64,000 bases of DNA. Origin: an uncultured Actinomycetes bacterium (lineage in GTDB: Bacteria > Actinomycetota > Acidimicrobiia > IMCC26256 > DASPTH01). Shown piece after piece: positions 19,340-41,050 of the stretch. Numbering within the stretch: position 1 is the first letter of the stretch; the number at the start of each line of letters is the position of its first letter. A program made the position numbers and the translations under genes. A model generated the notes under the pieces. The model had not been told where the DNA came from. It saw nothing but the letters and a program-made list of their open reading frames with translations, and did not search any database. The stretch is from positions 199,736 through 263,735 of the forward strand of contig CAVVPD010000002.1 of assembly GCA_963750045.1 (NCBI GenBank), given 5' to 3'.

Positions 19340-19354
19340 CCCGAGACCACCCGA

Positions 19355-20324: not shown

Positions 20325-21047
20325 CTACTGATCGGCCTGCATCTCCCGCCCGCTCGACGGCGTGACGCCGGAGAGATAGGTGGCTTCGATGTCGTCGATC
20401 TGGCCGAGGAGCTCCTCGTTCGTCCCGGAGAGAGCGACGACTCCCCGCCGCAGGACGTAGCCCCGATCGGCGACGGCGAGCGCCGCCCGGATCTGCTGCT
20501 CGACGAGCAGGACGCCCACCCCGCGGGAGGCTGCGTCGCGGAGTGCGTGCATGAGTCGCTCCACCACCATGGGGGCGAGCCCGAGGGAGAGCTCGTCGGC
20601 GAGCACGACCTTGGGAGCACCGGCGAGCGCGCGGGCAAGCGTGAGGATCTGCTGCTCGCCCCCGGACAGCAACCCGGCGGACCGCTTGAGGAGCGGTCGG
20701 AGCTCGGGGAACCGTTCGAGGGCGTCGTCGACGGGTCCCGGCCCGAGCCGCAGGTTGTCGAGCGTGCTGAGCCCCCGGACCACCGAACGCTCTTCCGGCA
20801 CGTACCGCAAGCCCGCGCGGGCGCGCCGGTGGAGTGGCGTGCGCACCGGCTTCCCGAGCCATTCGACGCTGCCCGACGTCGCCTGGAGGCGGCCGGCGAG
20901 TGTCATCAGGGTCGTGGTCTTGCCCGCACCGTTGGCGCCCATGAGCGCGACGACCTCGCCGGCATCCACATGGAGGTCGAGGTCCGTCAGCACGGGAATC
21001 GAGCCGTATCCAGCCGACACGTTGCGAGCCGCGAGCAGCTCGGTCAT
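20325..21047 (-). CDS. ABC transporter ATP-binding protein, LivF-like
   Basis: Walker A GANGAGKTT, signature LSGGEQQ, Walker B VLADELSLGLAP. Confidence 0.85.
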   Translation of the reverse strand: MTELLAARNVSAGYGSIPVLTDLDLHVDAGEVVALMGANGAGKTTTLMTLAGRLQATSGSVEWLGKPVRTPLHRRARAGLRYVPEERSVVRGLSTLDNLRLGPGPVDDALERFPELRPLLKRSAGLLSGGEQQILTLARALAGAPKVVLADELSLGLAPMVVERLMHALRDAASRGVGVLLVEQQIRAALAVADRGYVLRRGVVALSGTNEELLGQIDDIEATYLSGVTPSSGREMQADQ

Positions 21048-23735
21048 GCGGAGGCTCCGAGGTAGGCCTCCACCACCGCAGGGTCGTCGCGAACCTCCGC
21101 CGGGGTACCGTGTCCGATCACCCGACCGAAGTCGAGTGCGACGACGCGGTCACAGGTGCGCATGACCATGCCGACGTCGTGTTCGACGAGCAGCACGCCC
21201 ATGCCCCATTCGTCCGCCAGGCGGCGGATGAGGGTCGCGAGCTCGCCGGTGGCCCAGTCGTCGAGTCCGGCGGCGGGTTCGTCGAGCAGCAACACCGACG
21301 GCGACGACGCGACGGCGCGGGCGATCGCGATCGTGCGGCGCTGGGCGTACGGCAGGTCTCCTGGCTTCTGGTCGAGCACGTCGCCGAGGGCGAACTCGTC
21401 GATCGCGATGAGCGCCGCTTTCGGCAGCGGCGGCGCGGAGGGCCAGACGAGATCCCGGAGGTACCGCAGCGGGTTCCCGTCGTCGGCGGCGACCCGGATG
21501 TTGTCGAGCACGGTGAGGTCGTCGAAGAGCTCGAGCGACTGGAACGAGCGGGTGACTCCGAGCGTCGCTCTCCGCCGCGGCGAACTGCGCTCGATGGCGC
21601 GGCCGTCGAGCAGCACGGCTCCGGTCGAGCGGACGAAGCCGGTCGCCGCCTCGATCAGGGTCGTCTTGCCGGCGCCGTTCGGACCGATGAGCCCCACGAC
21701 CTCGCCCGGTTCGACGGTCAGGTCCACGCCGTCGAGCGCGAGGACGTTGCCGAACTGGACGGTGAGGCCCGTGAGCTCCAGCCGTTTCGGGGTCGCTTGC
21801 GCCACCGGACGACGTCGCGCGGTCGCGCCGGCGTCTTCGGCGGCTCGGGCCGCGTTGCGTCGGAAGCGGCCGGCGATTCGCCGACCCTGCCCGGCGAGGT
21901 CCGACGCGATGCCATCGGGGTTGAACACGATCACGAGCAAGAGCGCGACGGCCGCGATCACGGGATACCAGCTCTCGGTCTCGATCACCTGGGTGATCAG
22001 GTGCTCGCTGACGCCGGCGACCTGCAACGCGCCGCCGATGAGCGCCCCGCCGATCCATCCGATCCCGCCGATGGTGGCGAGCAGGACGGCCTGGATGTTC
22101 CCGAAGAAGTCGAACGCGATGAGGTTGAGTCGAGAGTTGCGGAACGCGATCAGCCCGCCACCGGCGCCCGCCAGCGCGGACGCGAGGCAGAAGGCGTAGA
22201 ACTTCGCGCCCATGTTGCTGATCCCGAGGCTCGCAGCCGCGCGCTCGTTGTCTCTCACCGCGATGAGCCGACGACCGGCCGGACCGCGCCGGAGGTTCGC
22301 GACCAGGATGGCAGCGAGCGCGAGCAGCGCCACGACCACTGCGCCGTAGCGCTCGGGGTGGGTCAGCGCGTCGATCTTCCAGCCGAAGATCTCTGGCGGA
22401 GGAACGGTTCCCGGATGCAAGAGGCCACCGGTGTAGATGTCGTTCGACAACACCATCGTCGACAGCACGAGGCTCAAGGCAAAGGTCGTGACCGCCAGGT
22501 TCACGCCGCGGACGCGCAACGCGGGCAGCGACACGACCATCCCGATCGGGACCGTGAGCAGCACGCCGACCGCGAGCGCGAGCAGGAATGGCATCGACCA
22601 CAGGTCCGCGGCGTAGCGACCGACCAACAGCGCTCCGACACCCGCGATCGACCACTGCGCCAGGCTCAACTGACCGGCAAAGCCGGTGACGACGACGAGG
22701 GACAATGCGACGAATGCGAACGAACCACTGGTGATCACCACGTCGGTCCAATCGGCCGTGAACACCCACAGCGAACCGATCACCGCGGCCGCGAGCAGGA
22801 TGACGGGCAGCGGACGCACCCGACCCGTTCCCACCGACGGCAGTCGGTCCGCGAGGAAGCTGCGCAACGGCAGTGCCCGACCGCGCACGATCAGGAGCAC
22901 CACGATCACGAGGAAGGGGACCGCGGTCGACAGGCCCTTGAGGTACCCGGTCGGATTTCCGTAGTGCAGGGCTTCCGACTCGAGAACCCCGACCAACAGC
23001 CCGCCGAGCAGCGTCAACGGGAACGACGAGAAGTTCCCCACCAGAGCCGCCGCCAACGCGATCACGACCACCAGCACCGGGCTGTCGACCGACAGGCCGC
23101 CGACGATCCCGGCGAGCAGGATCCCGGCGAACCCGGCGAGCGCGCCGCCGAGCGCCCAGTTCGCGGTCGCGATCAGCGTGGGCGACCAGCCCTGCGCCGC
23201 CGCGACCGCTTCGTTCTCGGCCACCGCGGAAGTCGCCAGCCCGAATCGCGTGTACCGGTACGTCAGCCAGAGCACCGCGGTGAGCACCACGGTGATCGCC
23301 AGGATCCAGATGCGGTCCTCACCGATGATGATGCCGCCCCCGACCGGTTGGACCGCGCGCGGGAAGGAACTGCTCGACCGTACGGAATCCGAGATCACCG
23401 AGTCGGTGCTTCCAGAGCTCACGGCCGAGGGCCAACACGCCGAGCGTGGCGATGATCCGCACCAGCGGCGACGATCGTCGTAACGGCGTCATCACGACGA
23501 GGTTCACCACCCCACCGGCCACCGCGCCGGCGGCGACTCCCAGCACGATCGCACCCGTCGTCCCCAACGAGTCGCGCACCTCCGTGTACACCCCGGCACC
23601 CGTGAGCGCGAACACGCCGTGGGCGAAGTTCACCACTCCGGAGCCCCGGTACACGAGCACGATCCCCAGCGCCACGAGCGCGTAGATCGCCCCGCTTCCG
23701 AGGCCCAGGAGGAAGAACTTCCAGAATTCGTTCAC
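21044..23735 (-). pseudogene. LivH-LivM-LivG-type permease/permease/ATPase fusion, one frameshift as sequenced
   Basis: ORF 23319-23735 is the LivH N-terminal half (MNEFWKFFLLGLGSGAIYALVALGIVLVYRGSGVVNFAHG). ORF 21044-23422 continues with the LivH C-terminal half, a LivM-like permease and an ATPase (GPNGAGKTT, LPYAQRR). The frames meet at the C5 run 23337-23341. Confidence 0.7.
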
Positions 23736-23762
23736 GCAACGACGAGGCTCTCGGCCGACGTC

Positions 23763-24983
23763 CTACGCCGGCCCGCCGAACGCGTCCTGCCACTCGCCCG
23801 TGATCGGGACGGCCTTGCCGTTCTTGTAGGCGTAGCCGATGGCGTACGGCAGGATCACGTTGGGGGCGAGCCCGGCGAACACCGCGGGGTTCGGCTTGCG
23901 CGCGGTGTAGTCGAGGGGTGCCGACAACATTCCGTTCGTGTCGTACGCCGTCTCGGCCCCGAGCGCCGCGAACACGCCCGCGCGGTCCTTGGTCGCCGCC
24001 TGCTTCAGCTCGTCGGCCACGATCTTCACCGAGAGCCAGGCCTTTGCGCTCAGGTCGGTGATGAGACTGGCCTTGCTGTTCCCCGACGCCTTCATGTCCT
24101 TCACGAACTGCTTGTACTGCGCCGACGACAGGTCGTAGGAGCCGACGAGCACCACGTTCTTGGCGGCATCCCCGAGCTGGGACTTCAGGCTCGCGGCCGA
24201 GTGCACGCTGCCCGAGATGAACATCTTGCCCTTGTACCCCTGCTGGGTCAGCGCCTTGGTGAGCTGCGTCGCCTGCTCCTGCGGGACCGCCTCGACGATA
24301 CAGTCGGCGTTGTCGCTGACGAGTTGCGCCGCCTGCGACGACAGGTCGGCCGCGGTCGAGGGGATCGGCACCGACGTCGTCAGCTTCGTGTCGAAGGGCT
24401 TCAGCACGAAGCTGTCCATCACGCTGATGACCTGGGCGCCGGCCGCGACGTCGAGGTACGCGACCGAAACCGACTTGCCCTTGAGGTCGTTGAGGCAGAT
24501 CGGACCGGCGGCTGCGATGCCGGTGATGGACCCGCCGTCGGCGGGGAAGACCGCGGTCGACTTGAAGTCGCTCAAGCCGTACATTCCCGGGCCCACCGAT
24601 GCCAGCTTCGCGTTCTCGAGCTCGGGGTTCACCGTGTCACCGAAGTTCGTGTTGGTGCCGACGAGCGCGACCACAGCAGGGTCGTCGCCGAAGTCCCGGG
24701 CGCACTTCTGCGCGGTGTTGGCGTCGTTCTTGTCGTCGCAGTACTTCACCGTGATCTTCGGACCGCCACTCGCCTTGATGGCCTTGATCGCGGCCGCGAT
24801 CCCGGCCTTGTCCTGGGCGACCAGCGACGCGGTCTGGCCCGCCTGGATGGAACCGACCGTGATGTTCCCGCCGGAACCGGCCGCGGCGCGCGTGCGAGCG
24901 AATCCCGAGCTCGCTCCCGCGGCTCCGGCCAGCGCCGCTACGACCGCGCACGCCAATGAACCCACCACGAACTTGCGTCTCAT
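23763..24983 (-). CDS. ABC transporter substrate-binding protein (type I PBP, LivJ/K-like) with an N-terminal signal peptide
   Basis: 406 aa. The hydrophobic N-terminus is MRRKFVVGSLACAVVAALAGAAGA. First gene of the transporter operon. Confidence 0.8.
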   Translation of the reverse strand: MRRKFVVGSLACAVVAALAGAAGASSGFARTRAAAGSGGNITVGSIQAGQTASLVAQDKAGIAAAIKAIKASGGPKITVKYCDDKNDANTAQKCARDFGDDPAVVALVGTNTNFGDTVNPELENAKLASVGPGMYGLSDFKSTAVFPADGGSITGIAAAGPICLNDLKGKSVSVAYLDVAAGAQVISVMDSFVLKPFDTKLTTSVPIPSTAADLSSQAAQLVSDNADCIVEAVPQEQATQLTKALTQQGYKGKMFISGSVHSAASLKSQLGDAAKNVVLVGSYDLSSAQYKQFVKDMKASGNSKASLITDLSAKAWLSVKIVADELKQAATKDRAGVFAALGAETAYDTNGMLSAPLDYTARKPNPAVFAGLAPNVILPYAIGYAYKNGKAVPITGEWQDAFGGPA

Positions 24984-25079
24984 CGACGCACCCCCATGTC
25001 ACGAATTCCCCCGGATGGACCGAGCACGCCGTGCCGCCGAGCCGGAGCTCGCGCGCTCGCGGGCGCTCGTACGCCCCGC

Positions 25080-25108
25080 ATTGTAGTTCGATTCTCTAAT
25101 CTTGTCTA
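25080..25108 (-). promoter_or_regulatory. Sigma70-like promoter for the ABC transporter operon: TAGACA - 17 nt - TACAAT
   Basis: Read on the minus strand. This is the only AT-rich patch in the divergent SBP/marR intergenic region, about 95 nt upstream of the ATG at 24983. Confidence 0.45.
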
Positions 25109-25196
25109 CCGAAGCGCGCGCGATCCCGCTACGGGTTCACCCTCGAGCAACGGGACGCGTTCGCGCGCCGCACCACGCCACTACTGTGCCCCGGTG

Positions 25197-25664
25197 ATGG
25201 CGGCGAAGCGCGAGTCCAGCGAGCCGGACGAAGAACTCACCCTCGCGATCCAACTGCTGGCGCGGCTGGCGTCGCTGCTGAACACCGCGTGCGCGCAGGC
25301 GGATCTCAGTCTCGTGCAGTACCGGCTGCTCCTGCTCGTTGCCCGCCAACCACCACGTGCGCGCACCCTCGCAAGTCTGCTCCAGATCTCGCGTCCCACG
25401 CTCAGCTCGAACCTCAAGACGGTCGAGCGACGCGGGCTCATCGTCCGCCACACGGTCGCGGGCGACGGACGCGGCGTCCGGCTCGCGATCACGCCGGCGG
25501 GCCGCAAGGCGCTGCGCCGGGCGGAAGCCGAGCAACGCCAGGTGCTCCATCAGGTGCTGAGCCCTGCCGACCTTCGGCGGGTGCGGAACCTCGTGCCCAT
25601 CGCCGACACCTTCGACGCCGCCCTCGAGCACTACAACGCCACCGGCGAGACCCCCCTGAGCTGA
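25197..25664 (+). CDS. MarR family transcriptional regulator
   Basis: Start trimmed to ATG 25197. LSLVQYRLLLLVARQPPRARTLASLLQISRPTLSSNLKTVERRGLIVR. Confidence 0.8.
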   Translation: MAAKRESSEPDEELTLAIQLLARLASLLNTACAQADLSLVQYRLLLLVARQPPRARTLASLLQISRPTLSSNLKTVERRGLIVRHTVAGDGRGVRLAITPAGRKALRRAEAEQRQVLHQVLSPADLRRVRNLVPIADTFDAALEHYNATGETPLS

Positions 25665-25759: not shown

Positions 25760-26896
25760 ATGGCCTACGACCTGTTCAGCGTCGACGACCACATCATCGA
25801 GCACGCAACGGTGTGGACGGACCGCCTACCCGCCAAGTACCACGACATCTGTCCCCACGTCATCGAGGAGGACGGGCGCGAGTACTGGGTCTGGGAGGGA
25901 ACGAAGTCCCCGCAGATGGGCCTGAACGCGGTGGCGGGCAAGCCGCGGGAGAAATGGACGATGGAACCCACGCGCTTCAGCGACATGATCCCGGGCTGCT
26001 ACGACCCCACCGAGCGCGCCAAGGACATGGCCGTCGACGGCATCAGGGCGAGCCTCTGCTTCCCCACCCTCGCCGGCTTCGGCGGGCGCGTGCTCGGCGG
26101 CTACGAGGACAAGACGCTGGCCGACCTGTGCATCAAGGCCTACAACGACTTCCACATCGACGAGTGGTGCGCGGCAGCGCCCGACCTCTACGTGCCGATC
26201 ATCGTCGGCCAGGTGTGGGACCCGATCGCCATGGCAGGGGAGATCCGTCGCGGCGCGGCCAAGGGTGCCCGTGCGCTCTCCTTCCCCGAGGGTCCGGTAT
26301 CGCTGGGCCTCCCGTCCCTGATGAGCGAGTACTGGGATCCGGTGTGGCAGGCGTGCGTCGACACCGAGACGGTGGTCTGCATGCACATCGGGTCGAGCGG
26401 CGAGTTGACGAACCCCGCACCCGACGGCCCCTTCGTCATCCCCATCGCGCTCGGCAACGTGAACGCGCAGGCAGCGATGGTCACGTTCGCCCTCTCGCCG
26501 GTACCGCGCAAGTTCCCCACCATCAAGCTCGCCATCTCCGAGGGTGGGATCGGCTGGGTCCCGGCCGCGCTCGAACGCGCCGACCGCCAATTCATCCGGC
26601 ACCGCCTGTGGGCCGGGATGGACGACCTGCTCCCGAGCGAGGTGTGGAGGAGAAACGTGTGGGGCTGCATGATCGACGAGCCCATCGGTCTCACGTTTCG
26701 GGACCACGTCGGCATCGACAAGATCCTGTGGGAGTGCGACTACCCGCACTGTGACAGCCCCTGGCCGCACAGCCAGAAGGAAGTCGAGGAGTTGTTCATC
26801 GCCGCCGACATCGACGACCGCGAGGCCGAAGCCATCACGCACCGCAACGCCGAGCAGCTGTTCCGGTGGGAGCTCGGCGTCGGCAACGGGCGCTGA
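25760..26896 (+). CDS. Amidohydrolase_2 family protein
   Basis: RBS GAGGGGGA upstream. MAYDLFSVDDHIIEH... and ECDYPHCDSPWP. Confidence 0.85.
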   Translation: MAYDLFSVDDHIIEHATVWTDRLPAKYHDICPHVIEEDGREYWVWEGTKSPQMGLNAVAGKPREKWTMEPTRFSDMIPGCYDPTERAKDMAVDGIRASLCFPTLAGFGGRVLGGYEDKTLADLCIKAYNDFHIDEWCAAAPDLYVPIIVGQVWDPIAMAGEIRRGAAKGARALSFPEGPVSLGLPSLMSEYWDPVWQACVDTETVVCMHIGSSGELTNPAPDGPFVIPIALGNVNAQAAMVTFALSPVPRKFPTIKLAISEGGIGWVPAALERADRQFIRHRLWAGMDDLLPSEVWRRNVWGCMIDEPIGLTFRDHVGIDKILWECDYPHCDSPWPHSQKEVEELFIAADIDDREAEAITHRNAEQLFRWELGVGNGR

Positions 26897-26905: not shown

Positions 26906-28117
26906 ATGGACCTTCCCCGCATCATCTCGGTCGACGACCACGTCATCGAGCCGCCGAACGTCTGGCAGGATCGTCTCCCTCGCGGGTACGCCGAGCGCGC
27001 ACCACGAGTCGAACGGAGCATCGGGCAGATGGTCTACGACGGCGGCCTCCGGTTCACCGAAGGCGACGGCCCCGGGTCCGCGCCGATGGACCTCTGGCAC
27101 TACGACGATCTCGTGTGGCCCATCCCGCGCGGCATGGCGCAGGTCGGCCACCTCGACGAACCGTCGGCCCGCTCGATCACCTACGACGAGATGGTCCCGG
27201 GGTGCTGGGACCAGCGGGCCCGGCTCGACGCGATGGACGCGAACCACACCGAGGCCAGCCTGTCGTTCCCGAGCTTCGCCCGGTTCTGCGGCCAGACGTT
27301 CCTCGAACGCGAGGACAAGGAGCTCGCGCTGCTCTGCGTGCAGGCCTACAACGACTGGATGATCGACGAGTGGTGTGCGGGTGACGGCCGTGGCCGTCTG
27401 ATTCCCTGCACGCTCATCCCGCTCTGGGATCCCGAGCTGGCGGCGAAGGAGATCCGGCGCTGCGCCGGCAAGGGGTCGTTCGCGGTCGCGTTCTCGGAGA
27501 ACCCGGTGCCGCTCGGACTGCCGAGCATCTACGGACCGCATTGGGAGCCGTTCTTCCGTGCCTGCGACGAGACCGGCACGGTCATCAACATGCACATCGG
27601 CTCCTCGTCGGCCATGGCCGCCACCGCACCCGACGCGCCACTCGAGGTCGGGATGTCCCTCACCGCGGAGAACTCGGTGCACACGTTCGTCGACTGGTTG
27701 AGCTCGGGCGTCCTCGCCCGCCATCCGAACGTCCGCATCGCGCTCTCCGAAGGTCAGGTCGGCTGGATGCCGTTCATGATCGAGCGCCTCGACAGCATCT
27801 GGAACCGCAGCCACTTCTACGGCGGACAGCTGCGCGCGGCACTGCCCGAACCACCCAGCACGTTCATGGCCGGACGGGTCTACGGCTGCATCTTCGACGA
27901 TCTCCACGGCCTCGCGAGCCGTGACGCGATCGGGATGGGACAGATCATGTTCGAAACCGACTATCCACACTCCGACTCGACCTTCCCGCACTCGCGTGAG
28001 ACCGCGGAGAAGATGGTCGCCGCCGCCGGCCTCGACGAACACGAGGCGTGGCAGCTGGTCCGGGGCAACGCCATCGAATGCTTCGGACTCGCCGCCCGGA
28101 TCGGCGTCGACCGTTGA
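26906..28117 (+). CDS. Amidohydrolase_2 family protein
   Basis: MDLPRIISVDDHVIEPPNVW... and ETDYPHSDSTFP. Confidence 0.85.
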   Translation: MDLPRIISVDDHVIEPPNVWQDRLPRGYAERAPRVERSIGQMVYDGGLRFTEGDGPGSAPMDLWHYDDLVWPIPRGMAQVGHLDEPSARSITYDEMVPGCWDQRARLDAMDANHTEASLSFPSFARFCGQTFLEREDKELALLCVQAYNDWMIDEWCAGDGRGRLIPCTLIPLWDPELAAKEIRRCAGKGSFAVAFSENPVPLGLPSIYGPHWEPFFRACDETGTVINMHIGSSSAMAATAPDAPLEVGMSLTAENSVHTFVDWLSSGVLARHPNVRIALSEGQVGWMPFMIERLDSIWNRSHFYGGQLRAALPEPPSTFMAGRVYGCIFDDLHGLASRDAIGMGQIMFETDYPHSDSTFPHSRETAEKMVAAAGLDEHEAWQLVRGNAIECFGLAARIGVDR

Positions 28118-28161
28118 CCGCCGTGTACGAGGAGCAGGAGCTCCAGAGCGACGCCTTCGAG

Positions 28162-30531
28162 ATGAACGAGGTCACCCACCGCACGCGGGCGCCGTTCAAG
28201 GTCGGCGTGTGCATGGACTTCGCCGGCGGTACGCAGATCGCGCAGGACTTCTACGACGGGATGCGCCTCGCCATCGACGAAGCCATCGAACGCGGTGAGG
28301 TCGACCATCCTGTCGAGCTCGTGATCCGGGAAGTCAACGGACCGATGCGTGGAACCAGTCCGGCAGTGCTGAACGTGTGGCGCGAGCTCGCGCACGACGA
28401 AGACTGCCTCGCGATCGTCGGCCCGGTCGTCACGGAGGCGAACCTCGCCATCGTCGAGGAAGTCAACCGATCGCGGGTCCCGACGATCTCGTTCTGCGCG
28501 ACGTTCGACTGGGCCGGTCCGTACTGCTACACGCTCCAGAACGGCGGGTTTCCCGACGAGGCGAACGTCCTGGCCTCCTACATGGCGTCGCGAGGTCACG
28601 AGCGGGTCGCCGTGTTCCACGAGGACGGCCTGATCGGCGAGGAGTTCTTCGCCGCCTTCCGATCTGCCGCCCGGCGCCACGGCATCAGCATCGTGGGCGA
28701 CCACGTCGTCGGGCTGTTCAACACGTTGCGACCCGTCGAACCACAACTTGCGTCGGTACGCGACACGGGCGCGGACACCGTCGTCGTTCTCTCCGCGTAC
28801 GGCACGCTCGCGCCGGTGCAACGCGCCCTCGAGGCAGTGAGCGCCGAGTGGGACTGGCATCCGGCGCGCTACCAGAACATGACCTGGGTCGCGATGACCG
28901 CGCTCGGCGCGGCGGGTGACTACGACAAGGCCGCGCTCGTGGAGACCTTCGAGGGCTGGGTCGGGCTCGATCAGATCCACGAGGGAAACCAGCACTTCCA
29001 GGCGGTGTTGGATCGATTCGAAGCCAGGTACGGTCGTCGACCGTTCCACTGCTACACCGCGTTGGGCTTCGACCATGGCTTCGTGGTCGCCGATGCATTG
29101 TCACGGATGAAGCCGCCGTCGCCCGGGGGCTTCAAGGACGCGCTCGAACGGCTCCGCATGCAGCCCGCCTGCATCGGCGGTCCCGGGACCACGATCAGCT
29201 TCGGGCCTCACGACAATCGCGGCTACAAGGGTGAGTACATCGTCCTGCGCACCGTCGAGAACGGCGAGGAGCGCCTGCTCGACGTCTCCTACGCCGATCT
29301 CCTGTCGACCGACCCCCGGTCGCTCGGCCACGATGGCGACGCAGTGGACGGCGCGATCACGGGTGAGGGCTCGCGTTACGCGCTCGTGGGTGACCGGACG
29401 CCGTTCCGCATCGGAGTGCTCCAGGACTGGGCCCTCTGGGCCAAGCTCGACCTCTGGTACAACGGGCTCCGCCTGGCCTTCGACGAGGCGTTCGACGAAG
29501 GGCTGATCGACCGGCCCGTGGAGCTCGTGATCTCGGAGGTCGAGGGGCCACCCGAACGCGACGCGGCGGGCGTCGTGCGCGCGTGGCGCAGACTGGTCGA
29601 CGACGAGCAGGTGCTCGCGGTCGTCGGACCCTTCATCACCGACATGGTGAGGATCATCCGCGACCGGGTGGAACGCGACGAGGTCCCCATGCTCACCTAC
29701 GCCGCGACCGTCAAAGCCGCCGGCGACTACGTCTTCCAGACCCCGAACGGCACCTTCGCCGACGAGACCTTCCACACCGCGCGGTACCTGCGCCGTCGTG
29801 GCGCGCACTCGGTCGGCGTGATCCGCGAAGACAACCCCATCGGCGACGAGTACTACGACTTCTTCCGCCAGCACGCGCGGCGCCTCGGGCTCAGCGTGGC
29901 GAGTGACCAGATCGTCGACGGCCACGCGACGCGGGGAGACATGCGACGGGCCATGAGCGCCATCCGGGACTCGGGTGCGGACGCGGTGATGCACCTCGGC
30001 TACGGCCTCACGTTCTTCGAGGTGCTCACGGTCATGCAGGAGATGATCGAGCGGGTCGGATGGGATCCGCCCCGGGCCACCATCACCACGTGGGTGCTGG
30101 CCAGCGGTCTCAGCGAGCCGGGCGGCAGCCCGTTCCTCATGAACCAAGCGCTGCCCGACGGCCTCCTCGAAGGGTGGGTCGGTGTCGATCTGCCCCACGA
30201 GGAGAACCCGGTGTTCCGCGCGTTCCTCGACCGCTACGTCAAGCGGTTCGGGGGCCCGCGCCCGTTCGGCTGCTACCCCGCCCATCTCTACGACATCGGC
30301 CGAGCGCTCGCGGAGGCCATCGGCCGCGCCCGGCCGGTCACCCCGAAGGGGGTCAAGGCCGGGCTCGAGCAGGTTCGGATGCTGCCGGCCACGATGGGCG
30401 GACCCGGCACCGTCATCGGGTTCGCTCCTTACGACCACCGCGGCTACAAGGGCGACTACCTGGTCCTGCGCGGCTACCGGAACGGCCGCGAGGGCCTCGC
30501 CGAGGAGCTCTTCGCCGACGTGATGACATGA
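28162..30531 (+). CDS. Tandem-duplicated type I periplasmic-binding-protein-fold (LivK/AmiC-like) protein without a signal peptide
   Basis: Two homologous halves. APFKVGVCMDF...VELVIREVNG...RMQPACIGGPGTTISFGPHDNRGYKGEYIVLR matches TPFRIGVLQDW...VELVISEVEG...RMLPATMGGPGTVIGFAPYDHRGYKGDYLVLR. The N-terminus MNEVTHRTRAPFK is not hydrophobic. An alternative GTG start lies at 28123. Confidence 0.75.
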   Translation: MNEVTHRTRAPFKVGVCMDFAGGTQIAQDFYDGMRLAIDEAIERGEVDHPVELVIREVNGPMRGTSPAVLNVWRELAHDEDCLAIVGPVVTEANLAIVEEVNRSRVPTISFCATFDWAGPYCYTLQNGGFPDEANVLASYMASRGHERVAVFHEDGLIGEEFFAAFRSAARRHGISIVGDHVVGLFNTLRPVEPQLASVRDTGADTVVVLSAYGTLAPVQRALEAVSAEWDWHPARYQNMTWVAMTALGAAGDYDKAALVETFEGWVGLDQIHEGNQHFQAVLDRFEARYGRRPFHCYTALGFDHGFVVADALSRMKPPSPGGFKDALERLRMQPACIGGPGTTISFGPHDNRGYKGEYIVLRTVENGEERLLDVSYADLLSTDPRSLGHDGDAVDGAITGEGSRYALVGDRTPFRIGVLQDWALWAKLDLWYNGLRLAFDEAFDEGLIDRPVELVISEVEGPPERDAAGVVRAWRRLVDDEQVLAVVGPFITDMVRIIRDRVERDEVPMLTYAATVKAAGDYVFQTPNGTFADETFHTARYLRRRGAHSVGVIREDNPIGDEYYDFFRQHARRLGLSVASDQIVDGHATRGDMRRAMSAIRDSGADAVMHLGYGLTFFEVLTVMQEMIERVGWDPPRATITTWVLASGLSEPGGSPFLMNQALPDGLLEGWVGVDLPHEENPVFRAFLDRYVKRFGGPRPFGCYPAHLYDIGRALAEAIGRARPVTPKGVKAGLEQVRMLPATMGGPGTVIGFAPYDHRGYKGDYLVLRGYRNGREGLAEELFADVMT

Positions 30532-31646
30532 GCGACGTCACCGCGGCCGTCGTCCGCGCGCCGGGCGAGCCCTTCGTACTGGAGCCGGTGTCGCTCGACG
30601 AACCGCAACCCGACGAGGTGCTCGTGCGCGTCGTCGCCGCCGGCATCTGTCACACCGACCTCGCGGTGCAACACGGCCACATCCCCGTGCCCCTCCCCGC
30701 CGTGCTCGGCCATGAGGGCGCGGGCATCGTCGAGAGGGTGGGTGTCCACGTGACCGGCGTTCACGCGGGCGCCCACGTGATCATGAGCCAGGCCCTCTGC
30801 GGTCACTGCCGGCGGTGCCTCGGCGGTGAGCCGGCATACTGCGAGAATGCCGCCGCGCTGAGCCTGGGCGGTCGCCGCGCCGACGGTTCGACACCGCTGC
30901 ACGACGGCGCGGGCGCCGAGATCTCCGGGAACTTCGTCGGGCAGTCGTCGTTCGCGACCCACGCGATCGTCAAGGCGCACAACGTCTACGAGATCGCGCC
31001 CGATCTCCCTCTCGCCCTCCTCGCGCCGATCGGGTGCGGAGTCATGACCGGCACGGGCGCGATCTTCAACGACGCGCGGCCCGCCCCGGGCGCAACGGTG
31101 GCGGTGATGGGTTGCGGCACGGTCGGACTGGCGGCGGTGATGGCCGCCAAGGTGAGCGGCGCCGCGCAGATCATCGGCGTCGATCTCGCGCCGGCACGCC
31201 TCGAGCTGGCGCGTGAGGTGGGCGCGACCGCAACCGTCCTCGCCGGTGACGACGTGGTCGCACAGGTCCACGAGCTCACCGCCGGAGGCGCCGACGTCGC
31301 CATCGAAGCGGCCGGGATGCCCGCGACGGCGATCGCCGCGATCGGATCGACCCACTCGACCGGAAGGACCGTGATCGTCGGTGCCGCGCCCTTCGGATCC
31401 ACCATCGAGCTCGACTGGTGGACGCTCGGCGCCGGGCGCCGCGTGCAGGGGTCCGTCATCGGTTCCAGCGACCCCGCGCGCGACCTTCCCCGCCTGGTCG
31501 AACTGTGGCGAAGCGGTGATCTCCCGCTCGAGGCCCTGGTGGCGACGTTCCCCTTCGAGCACATCAACGAAGCGGTCGCGGCCACTGCGTCCGGAACGGT
31601 CGTCAAGCCCGTCCTGGTGATGGACGGCGAAGGAGCGTCACGGTGA
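30528..31646 (+). CDS. Zn-dependent alcohol dehydrogenase (MDR family)
   Basis: Start trimmed to ATG 30528 (ATGA overlap). ICHTDL, GHEGAGIVERVG, and the structural-Zn motif CGHCRRCLGGEPAYC. Confidence 0.85.
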   Translation: MSDVTAAVVRAPGEPFVLEPVSLDEPQPDEVLVRVVAAGICHTDLAVQHGHIPVPLPAVLGHEGAGIVERVGVHVTGVHAGAHVIMSQALCGHCRRCLGGEPAYCENAAALSLGGRRADGSTPLHDGAGAEISGNFVGQSSFATHAIVKAHNVYEIAPDLPLALLAPIGCGVMTGTGAIFNDARPAPGATVAVMGCGTVGLAAVMAAKVSGAAQIIGVDLAPARLELAREVGATATVLAGDDVVAQVHELTAGGADVAIEAAGMPATAIAAIGSTHSTGRTVIVGAAPFGSTIELDWWTLGAGRRVQGSVIGSSDPARDLPRLVELWRSGDLPLEALVATFPFEHINEAVAATASGTVVKPVLVMDGEGASR

Positions 31647-32854
31647 ACGAGTACCACCCGGCCGACCCCCAGACGACGCGAGATCCGTTTCCCGCCCTGG
31701 CCGAGCTCCGCCGGACGTGCCCGGTCAGCCGCCGCATCGAGCCCGATCTTCCTCCCGTCACGCTCGTCACGCGCTACGAAGACCTGCGAACCGTCTACCG
31801 CGACTACCGCACCTTCGGGAACATCGGCTTCTACCCGTCCCTCGATCTCTACGGGATGATCCCGGAGGAGCAGCGCACGATCATCGATCTCGATCCGCCC
31901 CGGCACACCGCGGTTCGAAGGCTCAACCTGCTCGCCATGAAGCCGTCGGCGATCGAACAGGTCCTGCCGCGCATCGAGACGGTTGCCCAGCAGGTCGTCG
32001 CGCGGATGGTCGCCGCCGGCACAGCTGAAGTCGTCGGCGACCTCGCAGTGCCGCTCCCGGCGGACGCCATCGCCGCGGTGCTCGGGCTCCCCGCCAACGA
32101 TGCGGGCAGGATCCACGAGTGGATCGAGACGGTCTTCAGCGAGCCGGCCGTGGACCGAGCGGATCGACAGGCGAATCCGACGGCCGACATGAACGCCGAC
32201 TTCGATGCGTACCTGATCGATCAGATCTCGGCGCGCCGTCGCGGCGACGCCACCGACGATGACGCGATTCGCCGGATGACCGAGTTCGAACGCGACGACG
32301 GATCGCGCTTCAGCGACGGGGAGCTGTGCATCCACATCCGCACGCTGCTGATGGCCGGGAACGAGACGACCACGAGCCTGATCAGCAATCTCGTCTACCG
32401 GTTCTTGACCGTGCCCGAGGCGCAATCACGTCTCCGGACCGATCGTGCGCTGCTCGAGCCGTTCATCGAGGAATGCCTCCGCTTCGACGCTCCGCTCACC
32501 CAGTTCCCGCGTCGGTGCCTCGGCGCATCGACGATTGCCGACGTCCCGATCGCGGTCGACGACATCCTTTCGCTGTCCATACCTTCGGCCAACCGTGACG
32601 AGACGGTGTGGGGTGACGACGCCGAGGAGTTCCGCATCGATCGGTTCACGACCGAGCAACCCGACCACCTCACATTCGGTCTCGGCGCGCACTTCTGCGT
32701 TGGCGCCAACCTCGCCCGACGAACGGCCGCGATCGCGCTCGAGGTCCTGCTCGACCAGACGACGGAGCTCAGACTCGCCCCGGGGTTCTCGTTCGACAAG
32801 GTCTGGTTCTTCGAGTTCTGGCGCCCCAAGCGCCTCGACATCCTGCTCGGCTGA
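31643..32854 (+). CDS. Cytochrome P450
   Basis: GTGA overlap with the ADH gene. AGNETT I-helix and the FGLGAHFCVG heme loop. Confidence 0.85.
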   Translation: MNEYHPADPQTTRDPFPALAELRRTCPVSRRIEPDLPPVTLVTRYEDLRTVYRDYRTFGNIGFYPSLDLYGMIPEEQRTIIDLDPPRHTAVRRLNLLAMKPSAIEQVLPRIETVAQQVVARMVAAGTAEVVGDLAVPLPADAIAAVLGLPANDAGRIHEWIETVFSEPAVDRADRQANPTADMNADFDAYLIDQISARRRGDATDDDAIRRMTEFERDDGSRFSDGELCIHIRTLLMAGNETTTSLISNLVYRFLTVPEAQSRLRTDRALLEPFIEECLRFDAPLTQFPRRCLGASTIADVPIAVDDILSLSIPSANRDETVWGDDAEEFRIDRFTTEQPDHLTFGLGAHFCVGANLARRTAAIALEVLLDQTTELRLAPGFSFDKVWFFEFWRPKRLDILLG

Positions 32855-33015
32855 GGCCTCGCGCCGGATCACGCGGACCCCGCTGGGGTGACGTGTCGGC
32901 ATCACCACGTCAGGTCGGGACTGTCCGGCGTGCCGTGGCTCATCGGAACACCTTGTCGACCCGGCCTCTGCGCGCGAATGTCGTGCTGGCAATGGAATCC
33001 ACCAGGAGGTTCACC

Positions 33016-33336
33016 ATGCCGAAGTTCATGTTCAGAGCATCGTTGTCACCTGAGGGTGTCACCGGACTCCTCGCCGAGGGCGGTACCGCCCGACGCACCG
33101 TCGTCCAGGACGCGATCGAGGCTCTCGGGGGGACGCTCGAGGCCTTCTACTTCGCGTTCGGCGACGACGACGTCGTCGGTATTTGCGAGCTGCCCGACAA
33201 CGAGACCGCGGCCGCCTTCGGTTTGGAGACCTCGTCGTCGGGCCGGGTATCCGTGGTGACGACGGTGCTGCTCACACCGGAGGAGGTCGACCGAGCTCGC
33301 GAGAAGAAGAGCGGCTGGCGGGCACCCGGGGCCTGA
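33016..33336 (+). CDS. GYD domain protein
   Basis: RBS AGGAGG at 33004. MPKFMFRASLSPEGVTGLL...FGDDDVVGICELPDNETAAA. Confidence 0.7.
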   Translation: MPKFMFRASLSPEGVTGLLAEGGTARRTVVQDAIEALGGTLEAFYFAFGDDDVVGICELPDNETAAAFGLETSSSGRVSVVTTVLLTPEEVDRAREKKSGWRAPGA

Positions 33337-33479
33337 GCCGAGGCTCCCGGAGCGACGGCGATCGGGCGGCCGACGCCCCGAGCGGATTGTGCTGTCCGTC
33401 GCGACCGACGTGCGCGACGTTCAGTCCGTCGGCGACCCCGGAGCGAGGGTGACGTACGCTCGCTTCCACGGCTCTGCTG

Positions 33480-33800
33480 TTGTTCGATGACGGGTGACCG
33501 ACGAATCCGTCCCATGACCAACGCGGGATCCGCAGACCTTCTGGGACGTCGTCTGCGGAGCGGTGATACCGGGACATCGTCGTCTCGGTCGCCCACGCGA
33601 AGTGGTCGTGCAGCAAGTGTCGGAGCCGCTCGTCCCCGTCGAGACCGACGTCGACCAGGGCCTCGTCGAAGCAAACGATCGCCCGCCGGTCCATCTCCTC
33701 GTGCGGCCCATTGCCGCTGTGGAGGCGCACGACCGAGGTCTCGTCGCCACAGGTCTCGGAATACCGGGTCGGGCCATGTCGCAGCGGATGTCCGCCCGCC
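33480..33800 (-). pseudogene. Truncated-hemoglobin-like (group II trHb-like) C-terminal coding segment with no intact upstream frame
   Basis: One frame reads GPTRYSETCGDETSVVRLHSGNGPHEEMDRRAIVCFDEALVDVGLDGDERLRHLLHDHFAWATETTMSRY. From memory this aligns with the GGPRTYSE..RMRH..RDAWL.. region of trHbO. Upstream frames are broken by stops and shifts. Confidence 0.35.
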
Positions 33801-33968
33801 CCACCCGGTGACGCGTCCGCGTTCGGGCCCGGTCCGCGCAGACGGGTCCGTCCGCTATCGCCTGACCAGGCACTTCCGGAGTTCGTTCGGTCGGAGCGCT
33901 CCCCTGACCTCTCGACCAACGCAGCGCTCGGTGGTTCGCGAGTGGATCGCCTTCGTCGGGCGCCCACA

Positions 33969-34323
33969 TCAGTCCAGGGCTTGGCCGGCGAATGTCCGCG
34001 GTTCGCGTCCGGCGAGCAGCCAACCGGCGGCCGCGGGGAGTCCGATCGCAGCATGAGATTCCCGAGCGGCGGCGCGGCGAGGTTGTCCAGGTCGGCGTGG
34101 TACCCCGACCAGAACGAGGTGCGCGTCGTACTTCCGGCGCGACCACTCCGTGATCGGGAACCGCGTCGTCCGTCGTCGGCGACGCCCGGACACCGTCGAC
34201 CGCGTACGTCTCCACCGCCTCCACGATCTGCAATCTCGAGACCGCCTCGGCATACGACACGGCCAGGTGATTGATGGCGATGACATCGGCCGCCTGGTCG
34301 GCCGTCGGTTCGGCGATGATCAA
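33969..34323 (-). pseudogene. NTF2/SnoaL-like small gene whose frame collapses after about 55 codons
   Basis: TTG start at 34323, 6 nt after GAGGAGGG. IIAEPTADQAADVIAINHLAVSYAEAVSRLQIVEAVETYAVDGV. A plausible C-terminus, AAGWLLAGREPRTFAGQALD-stop, is in a different frame. Third-position GC jumps between frames. Confidence 0.35.
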
Positions 34324-34346
34324 CTTGTTCCCTCCTCATGGTCCAG

Positions 34347-35564
34347 TCAGGGAGAGCTGAAGCTCAGGGGGAGGTGCCGCGCTTGACGCACGCCGGCGAA
34401 CTCGTACTCGATCGCCTCGCCGTCGGTGACCCAGTACTCGGGGATGCGCCGGTGCAGCTGGTCGACCGATGCGCGCAGCTCGGCGCGCGCCAGGTGTGAT
34501 CCCAGGCAACGGTGGATCCCGGCGGCGAACGCGATGTGGCGGTTCTCGGTCCGGTCGAGGTGGGCGTCGAGCGGGTGATCGAAAGATGCCGGGTCGAGGT
34601 TGGCGCTGGCCCAACACAGGTAGACCATCTCACCCTGCTTGATCGGCACGCCGTTGACCTCGGTGTCGCGCAGCGCGGTGCGCGCGCCTGAGGACGGAAC
34701 CGGGCTCTCGTAGCGCATGATCTCCTCGATCGCCCCCGCCAGCCGGTCGGGTTCCGCGACGAGGCGCGCACGAACCTCCGGGTGCGTCGCCAGCCACGCC
34801 ACGATGCACGAGAGCGACGAGGTGACGGTGTCGAGTCCGGCGATGGTGAACATCTGCATGATGTTCACCACCTCGTCGTCGTTCAGGCTGTGGCCGTCGA
34901 CTTCGAAGTGCATGAACTGATCGAGCAAGTCGTCGTGGCGCGCGCCTTCGGCGCGTCGCTCGTCGAGGCGGGTGTGCAAGTGGGCGCGGAGCTCGCGTCC
35001 CGCGGCGCGGCCGATCACCTCGGCTTCGTCGCGCGTCGCGGCCTCGTTCTTGAGGATGTGGTCCTTCTTCGCGATGAGGAAGGACGCGTCTTCCACCGGC
35101 AGCCCGAAGATGCGCAGGAAGATCGTCGACGGGAGCGGGACGCAGAACGCGTCGTGGAACTCGACGCGGCCATCGCCGACGAAGCCGTCGATGAGCTCGT
35201 CGGCGAGCTTGCGGATGTCGGGTTCGAGCGCTGCCATCTTCTTCGGCGTGAACAGTGGATCCAACAGCTTGCGGTAGTGCCGGTGCAGTTCGCCGTCGAT
35301 GTGCAGCGGGATGAGCGGGTCATCCGTCCCCATGCCCATCACGACCGACCCGATGTCGGGATTCCGGCCGGCGGCGACGATGTCGTCCATCCCGAAGAAC
35401 CCGACCCCCATCTCCCAGCGCACCACCGGCATCGTGCGCCGGACCTCGTCGAGGGCGGTCTGTGGCAACTCGACGTCGAGCGCGCCATTCGGTTCGTAGG
35501 CGATCAGCGCCCGCAACTCCGGGCTCATCTGCTCGTAGCTCATCTCGACCACGTCGTTGCGCAT
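34347..35564 (-). CDS. Cytochrome P450 (paralog of 16874-18077)
   Basis: 405 aa. AGLDTVT I-helix and the FAAGIHRCLGSHLARAEL heme loop. Confidence 0.85.
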   Translation of the reverse strand: MRNDVVEMSYEQMSPELRALIAYEPNGALDVELPQTALDEVRRTMPVVRWEMGVGFFGMDDIVAAGRNPDIGSVVMGMGTDDPLIPLHIDGELHRHYRKLLDPLFTPKKMAALEPDIRKLADELIDGFVGDGRVEFHDAFCVPLPSTIFLRIFGLPVEDASFLIAKKDHILKNEAATRDEAEVIGRAAGRELRAHLHTRLDERRAEGARHDDLLDQFMHFEVDGHSLNDDEVVNIMQMFTIAGLDTVTSSLSCIVAWLATHPEVRARLVAEPDRLAGAIEEIMRYESPVPSSGARTALRDTEVNGVPIKQGEMVYLCWASANLDPASFDHPLDAHLDRTENRHIAFAAGIHRCLGSHLARAELRASVDQLHRRIPEYWVTDGEAIEYEFAGVRQARHLPLSFSSP

Positions 35565-35594
35565 CAGATCCCCCTGGATCGCGAATGCTTTGAA

Positions 35595-36041: not shown

Positions 36042-36121
36042 AGATCACGGTGCGGCGCGTGCAGACGACTTGCAACCGGCTCGGGCCCCTGCTCGAGAAG
36101 CTCTGAGAAGGTCAGCGCATG

Positions 36122-36207
36122 TGCCCGGGGAGAGATTCGAACTCTCACGCTCCATCACGGAGCCGGCGGGTTTAAGCCGCCTGCGTCTACCGTTCCGCCA
36201 CCCGGGC
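36122..36207 (-). tRNA. tRNA-Leu (anticodon UAA), class II with a long variable arm; CCA not encoded
   Basis: Hand-folded sequence: GCCCGGGTGGCGGAACGGTAGACGCAGGCGGCTTAAACCCGCCGGCTCCGTGATGGAGCGTGAGAGTTCGAATCTCTCCCCGGGCA. Acceptor stem GCCCGGG/CCCGGGC, anticodon loop CTTAAAC, T-arm GAGAGTTCGAATCTCTC. Confidence 0.85.
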
Positions 36208-36242
36208 CTCCGGCGAGGCTACGCGACCCCTCGCGCCGGTGG

Positions 36243-41045: not shown

Positions 41046-41050
41046 GATGG

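Follow-up and report, generated by a model that had tools for sequence, protein, structure and literature searches.

Results

The PBP2x gene and its operon

The window, that is, the whole 64-kb stretch of DNA analysed here, carries at 28123..30531 (+) a gene for a double binding-protein-fold protein, which we call PBP2x and which is recognised by its open reading frame, two Peripla_BP_6 stretches, a database entry (P0001) and an AlphaFold2 model. The open frame spans 28048..30531 (+) with no internal stop. GTG 28123, which sits 5 nt past the stop codon of the preceding gene AROb, is the likely start, and ATG 28162 is the alternative. The GTG start gives 802 aa, as in P0001 (802 aa), which the window protein matches at 100%, and the ATG start gives 789 aa. 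The uninterrupted frame and the two Peripla_BP_6 stretches bear out the view that one gene encodes both type I binding-protein modules in fused form, and reading frames and alignment rule out two genes parted by an overlooked stop, both in the window and in 23 homologues. In two relatives (L019 and L020) the gene looks split, but each split is a frameshift in a MAG assembly. A seemingly natural fusion of half a PBP2x to an alcohol dehydrogenase (P0027) is likewise explained by out-of-frame read-through at two places in its sequence.

PBP2x is preceded by AROa (25760..26896, +) and AROb (26906..28117, +), and followed by a Zn-dependent alcohol dehydrogenase (ADH; 30528..31646, +; Pfam ADH_N and ADH_zinc_N) and a cytochrome P450 (31643..32854, +; Pfam p450, with relatives in the PDB). 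All five genes are separated by gaps of no more than 9 nt or joined by start/stop overlaps, which confirms the placing of PBP2x within a compact operon of enzyme genes. The overlaps proposed to couple translation are real, the ADH start overlapping the PBP2x stop (ATGA, 30528-30531) and the P450 start overlapping the ADH stop (GTGA, 31643-31646); the operon genes of a relative (L001) also overlap by 4 nt. A GYD-domain gene (32893..33336, +; Pfam GYD, E 3.8e-25) is possibly the last gene of the operon. Upstream of AROa lies a MarR-family regulator (24996..25664, +; Pfam MarR_2), found at the same position in three related loci (L008, L019 and L034). Divergently oriented from these genes is an ABC importer (20325..24983, -), identified by Pfam and consisting of a binding protein (23763-24983, -), a fused permease-ATPase (21044-23422, -) and a second ATPase (20325-21047, -). 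As originally noted, this binding protein is secreted, since it carries a signal peptide. The window as a whole is a large catabolic island of the lipid/isoprenoid type that includes thiolase-like genes, family III CoA-transferases and a total of three P450s.

Two binding-protein modules without an export signal

Profile searches found Peripla_BP_6 (PF13458) twice in PBP2x (E 2.8e-56; 192.1 bits against a curated cut-off of 31.7), together with ANF_receptor, and the best stretch in the C-terminal module covers residues 447-774. The N-terminal module (28186..29308, +) and the C-terminal module (29395..30528, +) are 41% identical over 379 residues (E 7e-95). They are joined by a linker (29309..29394, +) that is the most variable region of our alignment A1, contains the 1-nt deletion of L019, and is modelled with low confidence (pLDDT below 50 at residues 403-410). 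The AlphaFold2 model (pLDDT 89.2, pTM 0.89) predicts two LivJ/LivK-like modules whose relative placement is confidently predicted to be fixed. In Foldseek searches, in which matches span one module at a time, each module matched LivJ/LivK-type structures with a probability of 1.00 and a TM-score normalised to the target of 0.70-0.85, the best being 4mlc, 3hut, 4q6b and 3td9. The ectodomains of mGluR and GABA-B are also among the matches, as is AmiC (1qnl), which matches each half at rank 46 with 17% identity.

The matching motifs reported earlier were seen in both modules: the short one reads VELVIREVNG in the N half and VELVISEVEG in the C half, and the long C-terminal one reads RMQPACIGGPGTTISFGPHDNRGYKGEYIVLR and RMLPATMGGPGTVIGFAPYDHRGYKGDYLVLR, respectively. 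We take the latter to be the C-terminal hairpin usual in LivK-type proteins. The positions presumed to correspond to the canonical ligand contacts of LivJ, as placed by alignment with E. coli LivJ and not by coordinates, are invariant in both halves. Further polar invariants of the N half in the homologue alignment are Cys30, Cys125, His309, Asp317-His318 and Arg366-Tyr368-Lys369, all of which, except Cys30, have counterparts in the C half. Such unusually high conservation, with many invariant polar residues in both halves of a protein encoded among enzymes, might suggest that PBP2x has catalytic activity of its own, as an enzyme or as a catalytic subunit, with its binding clefts as active sites. 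We regard this as very improbable, however, because Gly, Pro and Trp make up most of the near-invariant positions across the broader family of single-module proteins, with a few Asp, Glu and Arg but no Cys or His, and because neither Pfam nor structure searches returned an enzyme match. To our knowledge, no enzyme of the type I (LivJ) binding-protein fold has been described.

As to the origin of the doubling, the N and C halves separate into two old clades among which single-module relatives are interspersed, and unfused two-gene versions exist. The term tandem duplication, as first applied to this gene, is therefore uncertain. Judged from these sequences, fusion of two paralogues appears at least as likely. 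Recent recruitment of the importer's secreted binding protein was also considered and rejected, as it shows no significant similarity to PBP2x.

PBP2x has a hydrophilic N-terminus and enters the first strand of its fold within about 25 residues, a pattern shared by the 24 full-length family members and about 100 single-module relatives. Judged on N-terminal sequence, neither PBP2x nor the 23 aligned full-length homologues have a signal peptide, nor do about 100 single-module relatives (about 100 clusters at 50% identity, E ≤ 1e-30), and no Tat motif or lipobox was found in any homologue examined. The upstream extension of the open frame, VAAGPGQRHRMLRTRRPDRRRPLTAV, was rejected as a signal peptide: it overlaps AROb and is arginine-rich without a hydrophobic core. 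A lipobox at Cys30 was rejected as well, since there is no h-region and this residue lies in the first beta-strand and is conserved neither in the C half nor in the single-module relatives. The prediction of a cytoplasmic protein is thus supported.

These observations bear directly on the possibility that PBP2x is still a transport protein, either exported by an unrecognised route or acting on the inner face of the neighbouring importer. Its membership of PF13458 is in keeping with this, as is an importer of the branched-chain-amino-acid type, which both the window and its nearest relatives carry 3 kb upstream. Nevertheless, we find such a role scarcely credible. Besides the missing export signals, the importer comes with a secreted binding protein of its own, which is related to PBP2x by fold only, and ABC transporters are lacking near most PBP2x loci: the importer occurs only in the window and its nearest relatives, and the loci of Mycobacterium, Frankia and proteobacteria are without it.

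The adjacent genes are predicted diiron oxygenases

The two genes upstream of PBP2x were first described as amidohydrolases, and Pfam indeed assigns AROa to Amidohydro_2. This description has to be revised, since the closest characterised relatives of both proteins are DitZ and PtmU3, members of the amidohydrolase-related dinuclear oxygenases (AROs). AROa matches DitZ (8uyr) with an E value of 3.6e-75 and PtmU3 with 5.5e-34, AROb, a paralogue 38% identical to AROa, matches them with 5.6e-49 and 1.8e-33, and decarboxylases match the two proteins at a mere 1e-4 to 1e-5. The ARO signatures are an N-terminal D-x-H and a C-terminal D-x-P-H-x-D/E (PMC13154177). Both motifs are present in AROa (SVDDH and DYPHCD) and AROb (SVDDH and DYPHSD), and both are kept in all 10 aligned homologues. 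AROa and AROb are thus predicted from sequence to be diiron oxygenases, not hydrolases, and AROa is clearly a homologue, though not necessarily an orthologue, of DitZ. A Rieske ferredoxin gene, found beside other AROs, is mostly missing from the neighbourhood of the high-potential AROs such as DitZ and PtmU3 (PMC13154177), and a crude motif scan of the window for a Rieske or other ferredoxin gave off-frame artefacts only. The window contains a third ARO (13864-15480), with no binding-protein gene adjacent. That its neighbours are DitZ/PtmU3-like oxygenases changes the likely role of PBP2x.

Distribution and gene linkage of PBP2x

A survey of 185,579 species genomes recovered the double-module architecture at 15 loci, all annotated merely as 'ABC transporter substrate-binding protein', and no plasmid-borne copies were found. 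Searches of the literature on DitZ, on cytoplasmic Peripla_BP_6 proteins and on AROs with binding proteins found no published description of PBP2x. The architecture is therefore rare and without an assigned function; with no signal peptide and no missed stop either, none of the three findings that could have overturned the original prediction was obtained.

The same survey revealed AROs as constant neighbours which, in pairs, are inherited along with PBP2x in two phyla, Actinomycetota and Pseudomonadota: ARO genes adjoin PBP2x at every sufficiently flanked locus except one short contig (L011), where none is seen. Two AROs are present in Mycobacterium, at three Frankia loci and in actinomycete and Acidimicrobiaceae MAGs, as well as at a gammaproteobacterial locus (L003/L016) and in Hyphomonadaceae and Caulobacteraceae; one locus (L013) has a single ARO. 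Metagenome loci of the AROb clade (at least 72% identity) carry AROa, AROb and PBP2x together in 2 of 2 cases, and this clade lies on contigs that match those with PBP2x in length. By comparison, none of 78 solitary AROb-like loci (53-64% identity) has an AROa-like gene, and no binding protein was found at the 40 of these with at least 2.5 kb downstream. Neither did any of three inspected DitZ-like plasmid loci contain a binding protein. Unfused versions also occur at two sister loci, with two single binding proteins accompanied by an AROa-like and an AROb-like gene (L032) or by an AROb-like gene (L027), and L022 has one single-module binding protein beside one ARO. The cultured [Mycobacterium] vasticus MYC017 carries this single version (L022) as well as a double one (L014). 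A rule pairing exactly one module with each ARO fits L022, L032 and most double-module loci; it fails in L013 and was rejected.

Based on gene neighbourhood and fold only, we propose, tentatively and at a likelihood somewhat short of even, that PBP2x serves the AROa/AROb pair as a cytoplasmic accessory that binds a ligand and carries no cofactor, with one module per oxygenase. More generally, the lack of an export signal and the constant place beside paired AROs indicate that PBP2x is probably a helper of AROs and not a transport protein. There are counterpoints to the accessory role: many AROs manage without a PBP2x-like protein, three single-module relatives (L024, L025 and L026) lie close to P450 and SDR genes but have no ARO gene within 6 kb, and L013 and L011 have, as mentioned, one ARO and none.

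The ARO-free clusters with single-module relatives are also what would be expected if PBP2x and these relatives formed a pathway-wide cytoplasmic carrier that keeps a poorly soluble acid dissolved or shielded between P450, ADH, ALDH and ARO enzymes. Such a carrier would form no specific complex with AROs and would be the bacterial equivalent of the carrier proteins for fatty acids or sterols. P450, ADH or ALDH genes lie near most PBP2x loci, and the lipid/isoprenoid setting of the window is in keeping with such a carrier. In Pseudomonadota, moreover, the AROs next to PBP2x come from another subfamily. They share about 40% identity with AROa/b and are often encoded on the strand opposite to PBP2x, whereas PBP2x itself is 60-65% identical between the phyla; a shared substrate therefore fits no less well than a tight complex. 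On the other hand, the ARO-ARO-PBP2x trio stands alone within 5 kb at two of the three Frankia loci, the third (L010) having ADH and P450 genes close by as well; the number of modules mostly follows the number of AROs (L022 and L032, with L013 and L027 as exceptions); and the solitary AROb-like genes have no binding protein in comparable contexts. We consider a general carrier possible, though rather unlikely.

A sensor is the third role to be weighed. AmiC is a known cytoplasmic protein of the LivJ-type fold that is encoded inside its own catabolic operon, a precedent in fold, location and operon for PBP2x, and its structure (1qnl) is among the matches listed above. With a regulator gene near most PBP2x loci, PBP2x could act as an AmiC-like inducer sensor that sequesters the MarR protein here, GntR or TetR proteins elsewhere, or another regulator. 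However, the regulator families vary (MarR, GntR/FCD and TetR), no regulator lies beside the trio at the Frankia loci L004, L005 and L018, and no ANTAR/AmiR-type gene occurs among the scanned genes of the window or the Pfam-annotated related neighbourhoods. AROs are the sole constant neighbours, and PBP2x has no DNA-binding domain, as Pfam shows only Peripla_BP_6 and ANF_receptor over its 802 residues and a LacI/GalR-type N-terminal helix-turn-helix is absent. Such a sensor thus appears distinctly improbable. Of the roles originally suggested for PBP2x, all of which are putative, the genomic evidence speaks for a carrier or scaffold of the adjacent enzymes more than for a sensor of the AmiC kind.

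Discussion

LivJ-fold binding proteins are nearly always treated as extracytoplasmic parts of transport or signalling systems, and the PBP2x family has been annotated likewise. Since the whole family lacks export signals and lies inside catabolic operons for hydrophobic compounds, the transport annotation is probably wrong for all of its approximately 100 clusters. Like LivJ/LivK-type proteins of ABC importers, PBP2x belongs to PF13458 and has their fold. These proteins, however, are exported, consist of a single module and work with membrane permease partners, whereas PBP2x has no export signal, is doubled and mostly lies away from transporter genes. AmiC of the Pseudomonas aeruginosa amidase operon resembles PBP2x in having a type I fold, no signal peptide, a cytoplasmic location and a place in a catabolic operon. 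AmiC is a single module of about 385 aa that acts on the antiterminator AmiR; in contrast, PBP2x is a fusion of two modules that is only remotely similar to AmiC, and its constant neighbours are oxygenases, with neither an AmiR/ANTAR gene nor a constant regulator beside it. Paired LivJ-fold modules with ANF_receptor similarity are also known from the Venus-flytrap dimers of class C GPCRs and natriuretic peptide receptors, but these are eukaryotic, extracellular and made of separate chains on membrane domains, while PBP2x is one soluble bacterial chain.

Multicomponent ARO monooxygenases encoded alongside small accessory proteins have been described, such as AibH1H2 with AibG/AibF and SfbO with the Rieske ferredoxin SfbR (PMC7782822, PMC10401708, PMC10811679, PMC13154177). 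AibH1 and AibH2, the two components of AibH1H2, both have the ARO fold, a parallel to the pairing of AROa with AROb. The known accessories of AROs are electron carriers, namely Rieske ferredoxin and reductase, whereas PBP2x has no cofactor motif, and we found no mention of a binding-protein-fold partner in the ARO papers examined. DitZ (8uyr) and PtmU3 (6omp) are diterpenoid diiron hydroxylases with the same metal-binding motifs as AROa and AROb, a comparison that concerns the neighbours and not PBP2x.

If PBP2x is an accessory of the paired oxygenases, its two modules would form a built-in heterodimer with a ligand cleft retained in each. The ligand would probably be a carboxylated, poorly soluble substrate or product of the pathway, of the isoprenoid or lipid type. 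Through each module, PBP2x would bind this ligand and present it to one ARO subunit, or else gate that subunit; in addition, PBP2x may hold AROa and AROb together. The operon, with its two AROs, PBP2x, ADH and P450, and with an added ALDH and LEH/SnoaL-like protein in relatives, would oxidise this compound stepwise. In its most specific form, that PBP2x and its unfused relatives are a new cofactor-less oxygenase component that docks on the hetero-pair of diiron AROs, with a module for each oxygenase, and delivers or gates a hydrophobic carboxylic-acid substrate, the proposal is more speculative, and we hold it to be possible but doubtful.

The doubled form is tied to AROs, a superfamily described only since 2019. 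Substrate delivery or gating by PBP2x, if true, would represent a new design principle for multicomponent oxygenases, adding a non-redox partner protein for one clade of the high-potential AROs, which mostly lack a ferredoxin gene, and it would offer a practical tool for the use of AROs on poorly soluble terpenoids. Even as a mere carrier or sensor, PBP2x would provide a ligand-screening handle on the substrate of a conserved ARO-P450-ADH pathway.

Results

PBP2x, the double LivK-type binding-protein gene at 28123-30531 (+), lies in a frame free of stops from 28048 to 30531, and the preceding gene stops at 28117. Translation from GTG 28123 gives 802 residues, identical to the public entry P0001; ATG 28162 is the other possible start, but the stretch it would omit is similar to the corresponding residues of the two closest homologues in the alignment, which favours the GTG. 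Pfam matches the protein to Peripla_BP_6 in two stretches (E 2.8e-56) and to ANF_receptor, and the N-half aligns with the C-half at 41% identity across 379 residues (E 7e-95), an internal repeat well above chance. The motifs quoted in the original prediction are found in both halves, the long C-terminal one presumably being the family version of the usual LivK-type C-terminal hairpin. The ATGA overlap of PBP2x with the Zn-dependent alcohol dehydrogenase gene ADH (30528-31646, +) and the GTGA overlap of ADH with the P450 gene (31643-32854, +) are real, and upstream the gaps are 9 nt between AROa (25760-26896, +) and AROb (26906-28117, +) and 5 nt between AROb and PBP2x.

The original prediction of a hydrophilic N-terminus without a signal peptide holds. 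The fold's first strand starts at about residue 25, and extending the frame upstream, into the preceding gene, adds no hydrophobic core. A signal peptide is also absent from all 23 full-length homologues, which are 780-830 aa long and 52-78% identical in the alignment and whose N-termini are short, variable and hydrophilic. As also claimed, the locus has its own secreted binding protein with a signal peptide (23763-24983, -), which is unrelated to PBP2x beyond the fold (BLASTP E 0.2). An AlphaFold2 model from a 24-sequence alignment has a mean pLDDT of 89.2 and a pTM of 0.89, the latter suggesting that the two modules would sit in a fixed arrangement; the linker, residues 403-410, is the sole unconfident part. 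In structure comparison both halves match LivJ/LivK-type structures, with AmiC (1qnl) at rank 46, while the sequence matches solved structures weakly (best E 6e-7) and no NCBIfam model. As modelled, PBP2x is a protein of known fold, without an export signal and with a confidently predicted two-module body. With signal peptide and transporter linkage both missing, it is extremely unlikely that PBP2x is still a transport protein.

The two upstream genes had been taken for amidohydrolases, a label that does not survive comparison with solved structures. Their best solved relative is the oxygenase DitZ (8uyr; E 3.6e-75 for AROa and 5.6e-49 for AROb), the oxygenase PtmU3 (6omp) matches both at about 1e-33, and decarboxylases of their Pfam family, Amidohydro_2, reach only 1e-4 to 1e-5. 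DitZ, PtmU3, AibH2 and SfbO all belong to the amidohydrolase-related dinuclear oxygenases, or AROs (PMC13154177; PMC10811679). Characterised AROs carry two signatures, D-x-H in the N-terminal part and D-x-P-H-x-D/E in the C-terminal part, the second missing from characterised PF04909 hydrolases and decarboxylases (PMC13154177). Both proteins contain SVDDH, with DYPHCD in AROa and DYPHSD in AROb, and the motifs also occur in their homologues from four other loci. AROa and AROb are thus predicted to be oxygenases rather than hydrolases. Near high-potential diiron AROs such as DitZ and PtmU3, Rieske ferredoxin genes are largely missing (PMC13154177). A crude motif scan found no credible ferredoxin, Rieske protein or reductase in the 64-kb window, and the electron donors of its three P450s and three predicted AROs must be encoded elsewhere.

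Overall the window forms a large catabolic island, notably at 1-20000 and 34347-48326, with three P450s (16874-18094, 31643-32854 and 34347-35564), thiolase-like genes (11132-12544, 15666-16844 and 45407-46609), family III CoA-transferases (2-2401 and 18122-19339), a sulfotransferase (47163-48326), an acyl-CoA thioesterase and an aldo-keto reductase; sulfotransferase genes recur near related loci L003 and L027. An Amidohydro_2 gene at 13864-15480 (-) has the ARO motifs SIDDH and DYPHSD, is about 42% identical to the ARO pairs beside PBP2x in Pseudomonadota and has no adjoining binding protein; another at 44258-45328 (-), missing the D-x-P-H-x-D/E motif, is probably a conventional Amidohydro_2 member. 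The P450 after ADH is followed by a GYD-domain protein gene (32893-33336, +), and a 355-codon ORF at 33272-34339 (-), with no Pfam match and weaker codon bias, may not be a gene. A GT87 glycosyltransferase and a 796-aa GT87 + GT2 fusion lie side by side (36243-39835, -) next to a two-component system (39696-41773); the recurrence of GT87 genes near related loci L004 and L028 may be coincidence.

Among 5.8 billion proteins a word-indexed search picked out 31 clusters, the fullest name on any being 'ABC transporter substrate-binding protein'. A scan of 185,579 species (one genome each) with two peptide patterns, which may undercount, gave 15 loci; their hosts are Mycobacteriales, Frankia, uncultured Actinomycetes and Acidimicrobiaceae, Steroidobacteraceae and other Gammaproteobacteria, Caulobacteraceae, Hyphomonadaceae and one deltaproteobacterium. 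HMMER, run in full on 1.84 billion representatives, returned 1084 matches at E <= 1e-3 (103 at E <= 1e-30), among which the double form, at 50% clustering, has one full-length representative and the majority of the others are single-module proteins of about 345-400 aa. None of the approximately 100 single-module relatives listed has a signal-peptide-like N-terminus, and in most of them the fold begins within the first ~25 residues. PBP2x is therefore a minor offshoot of a fairly large and so far unstudied family of LivK-fold proteins that lack an export signal.

Two ARO genes adjoin PBP2x in every sufficiently flanked locus bar two, although such counts vary with the flank each contig offers, and the loci are mostly from metagenome-assembled genomes, in which frameshifts occasionally occur. 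The pair is found in the window and its close relatives (L008, L019, L020, L034 and L035), in Mycobacterium sp., [Mycobacterium] vasticus and three Frankia loci among other Actinomycetota, and in one Gammaproteobacteria locus (L003/L016), Hyphomonadaceae and Caulobacteraceae. The trio of AROa, AROb and PBP2x stands alone within 5 kb in two of the three Frankia loci, the third (L010) also being near ADH and P450 genes; outside these its usual companions are a P450, alcohol and aldehyde dehydrogenases and a LEH/SnoaL-like protein. The exceptions are L013, with a single ARO and an FAD-dependent oxidoreductase, and L011, a 9.9-kb contig on which the 6 kb before the gene and the 1.4 kb after it contain no ARO.

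Several individual loci deserve mention. Close relatives in long-read metagenome genomes (L019, L020 and P0027) are broken by single-base indels, one of them, at ~11200 in L019, exactly in the inter-module linker; the apparent fusion protein P0027 is false, its gene call reading through into the alcohol dehydrogenase gene. In L012 (Caulobacteraceae) two double-module genes lie in tandem (7626-9911 and 10034-12364), 50% and 65% identical to PBP2x, with two AROs 2 kb downstream. The deltaproteobacterial P0180 (L021, ~9980-11698, +; 575 aa) lacks ~200 internal residues of the first module, keeps the second intact, adjoins APH/EcKL-type kinase genes and may be a double form in decay or one that has been remodelled. 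The Mycobacterium locus L001/L015 (16251-22217) also encodes a LEH-like protein, a luciferase-like monooxygenase, a thiolase/DUF35 pair and Ldi, of the linalool dehydratase-isomerase family, which hint at an isoprenoid as pathway substrate.

The linkage can also be read starting from the ARO genes. About 19 clusters make up the AROb clade at >=72% identity, and they occur on contigs equal in length to those that carry PBP2x. A metagenome scan gave 80 AROb-like loci, of which the two at 90% and 72% identity have the whole trio and the remaining 78, at 53-64%, are solitary: none has an AROa-like gene, and no binding protein lies near any of the 40 with at least 2.5 kb downstream, 29 of which have that much on both sides. 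Unfused arrangements also exist. L032 (AROb-like at 64%) encodes an AROa-like protein, an SDR, two separate single-module binding proteins without signal peptides, an AROb-like protein and an ALDH; L027 (67%) has an AROb-like gene with two single binding proteins, L033 one immediately upstream of its AROb-like gene, and L022 ([Mycobacterium] vasticus) one single-module protein and one AROa-like gene, then ALDH and P450. Three other single-module relatives belong to P450/SDR clusters in which no ARO lies within 6 kb of them, and three plasmid DitZ-like ARO loci have no binding protein; the association is therefore strong for the paired AROs of this lineage and not general to AROs or to the whole binding-protein family. 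Around L024 7117-8190 (-) and L025 4919-6004 (+) and 7158-8306 (+), two single-module relatives, from Mycolicibacterium and Ramlibacter, adjoin a DapB_N-like oxidoreductase (~360 aa) with a P450 near. In L025 each neighbour shares 4 nt with the binding-protein gene, and one of these neighbours is a 382-aa protein that matches nothing in Pfam or PDB.

Discussion

The gene had been described as tandem-duplicated. Its two modules are indeed homologous, whereas duplication in place is uncertain: a neighbour-joining tree and the unfused two-gene loci make fusion of neighbouring paralogues at least as likely. In this tree, whose short internal branches do not settle the branching order, the N-halves group in one clade and the C-halves in another, single-module proteins falling between the two, and the whole export-less family is distant from the window's secreted binding protein. 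The doubling is older than all the double forms aligned, and a fusion, if it occurred, suggests that two separate proteins act as a heterodimer.

PBP2x is inherited together with paired ARO genes, in fused and unfused forms. We take the E. coli LivJ ligand contacts Ser79, Ala100-Ala101-Thr102, Tyr150 and Tyr202 to correspond to Thr104 and Thr506, Cys125-Ala126-Thr127 and x-Ala528-Thr529, Ile171 and Ile573, and Tyr226 and Tyr627 of PBP2x. As these positions vary little or not at all in either half across the alignment, each cleft seems intact and fit for a ligand that bears a carboxylate, which fits the diterpenoid acid substrate of DitZ and the aldehyde dehydrogenase of related operons. From the fold, the missing export signal, the co-inheritance and the conserved clefts, we tentatively propose that PBP2x could be a cofactor-less ligand-binding accessory of AROa and AROb. 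It would bind the substrate and present it to the oxygenases or gate its entry, one module serving one oxygenase, and perhaps also keep the pair together. A pathway-wide carrier of a poorly soluble intermediate is a less probable role, favoured by the single-module loci without an ARO and by the 60-65% identity of PBP2x across phyla, against about 40% for the adjoining AROs. A ligand sensor like AmiC is quite unlikely, the loci having neither a constant regulator nor an ANTAR partner. That PBP2x is itself an enzyme is more unlikely still: we know of no enzyme with this fold, and across the wider family it is mainly Gly, Pro and Trp, and never Cys or His, that are nearly invariant.

PBP2x belongs to the PF13458 fold family and does not fit a transport binding protein, an AmiC/AmiR pair or a LacI-type repressor. 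Its closest functional analogues are AmiC, as a cytoplasmic ligand binder, and the accessories of multicomponent oxygenases, but the latter are redox proteins. The literature searched yielded no paper on PBP2x or its ARO link. It is conceivable, if rather doubtful, that PBP2x defines a new type of oxygenase component.
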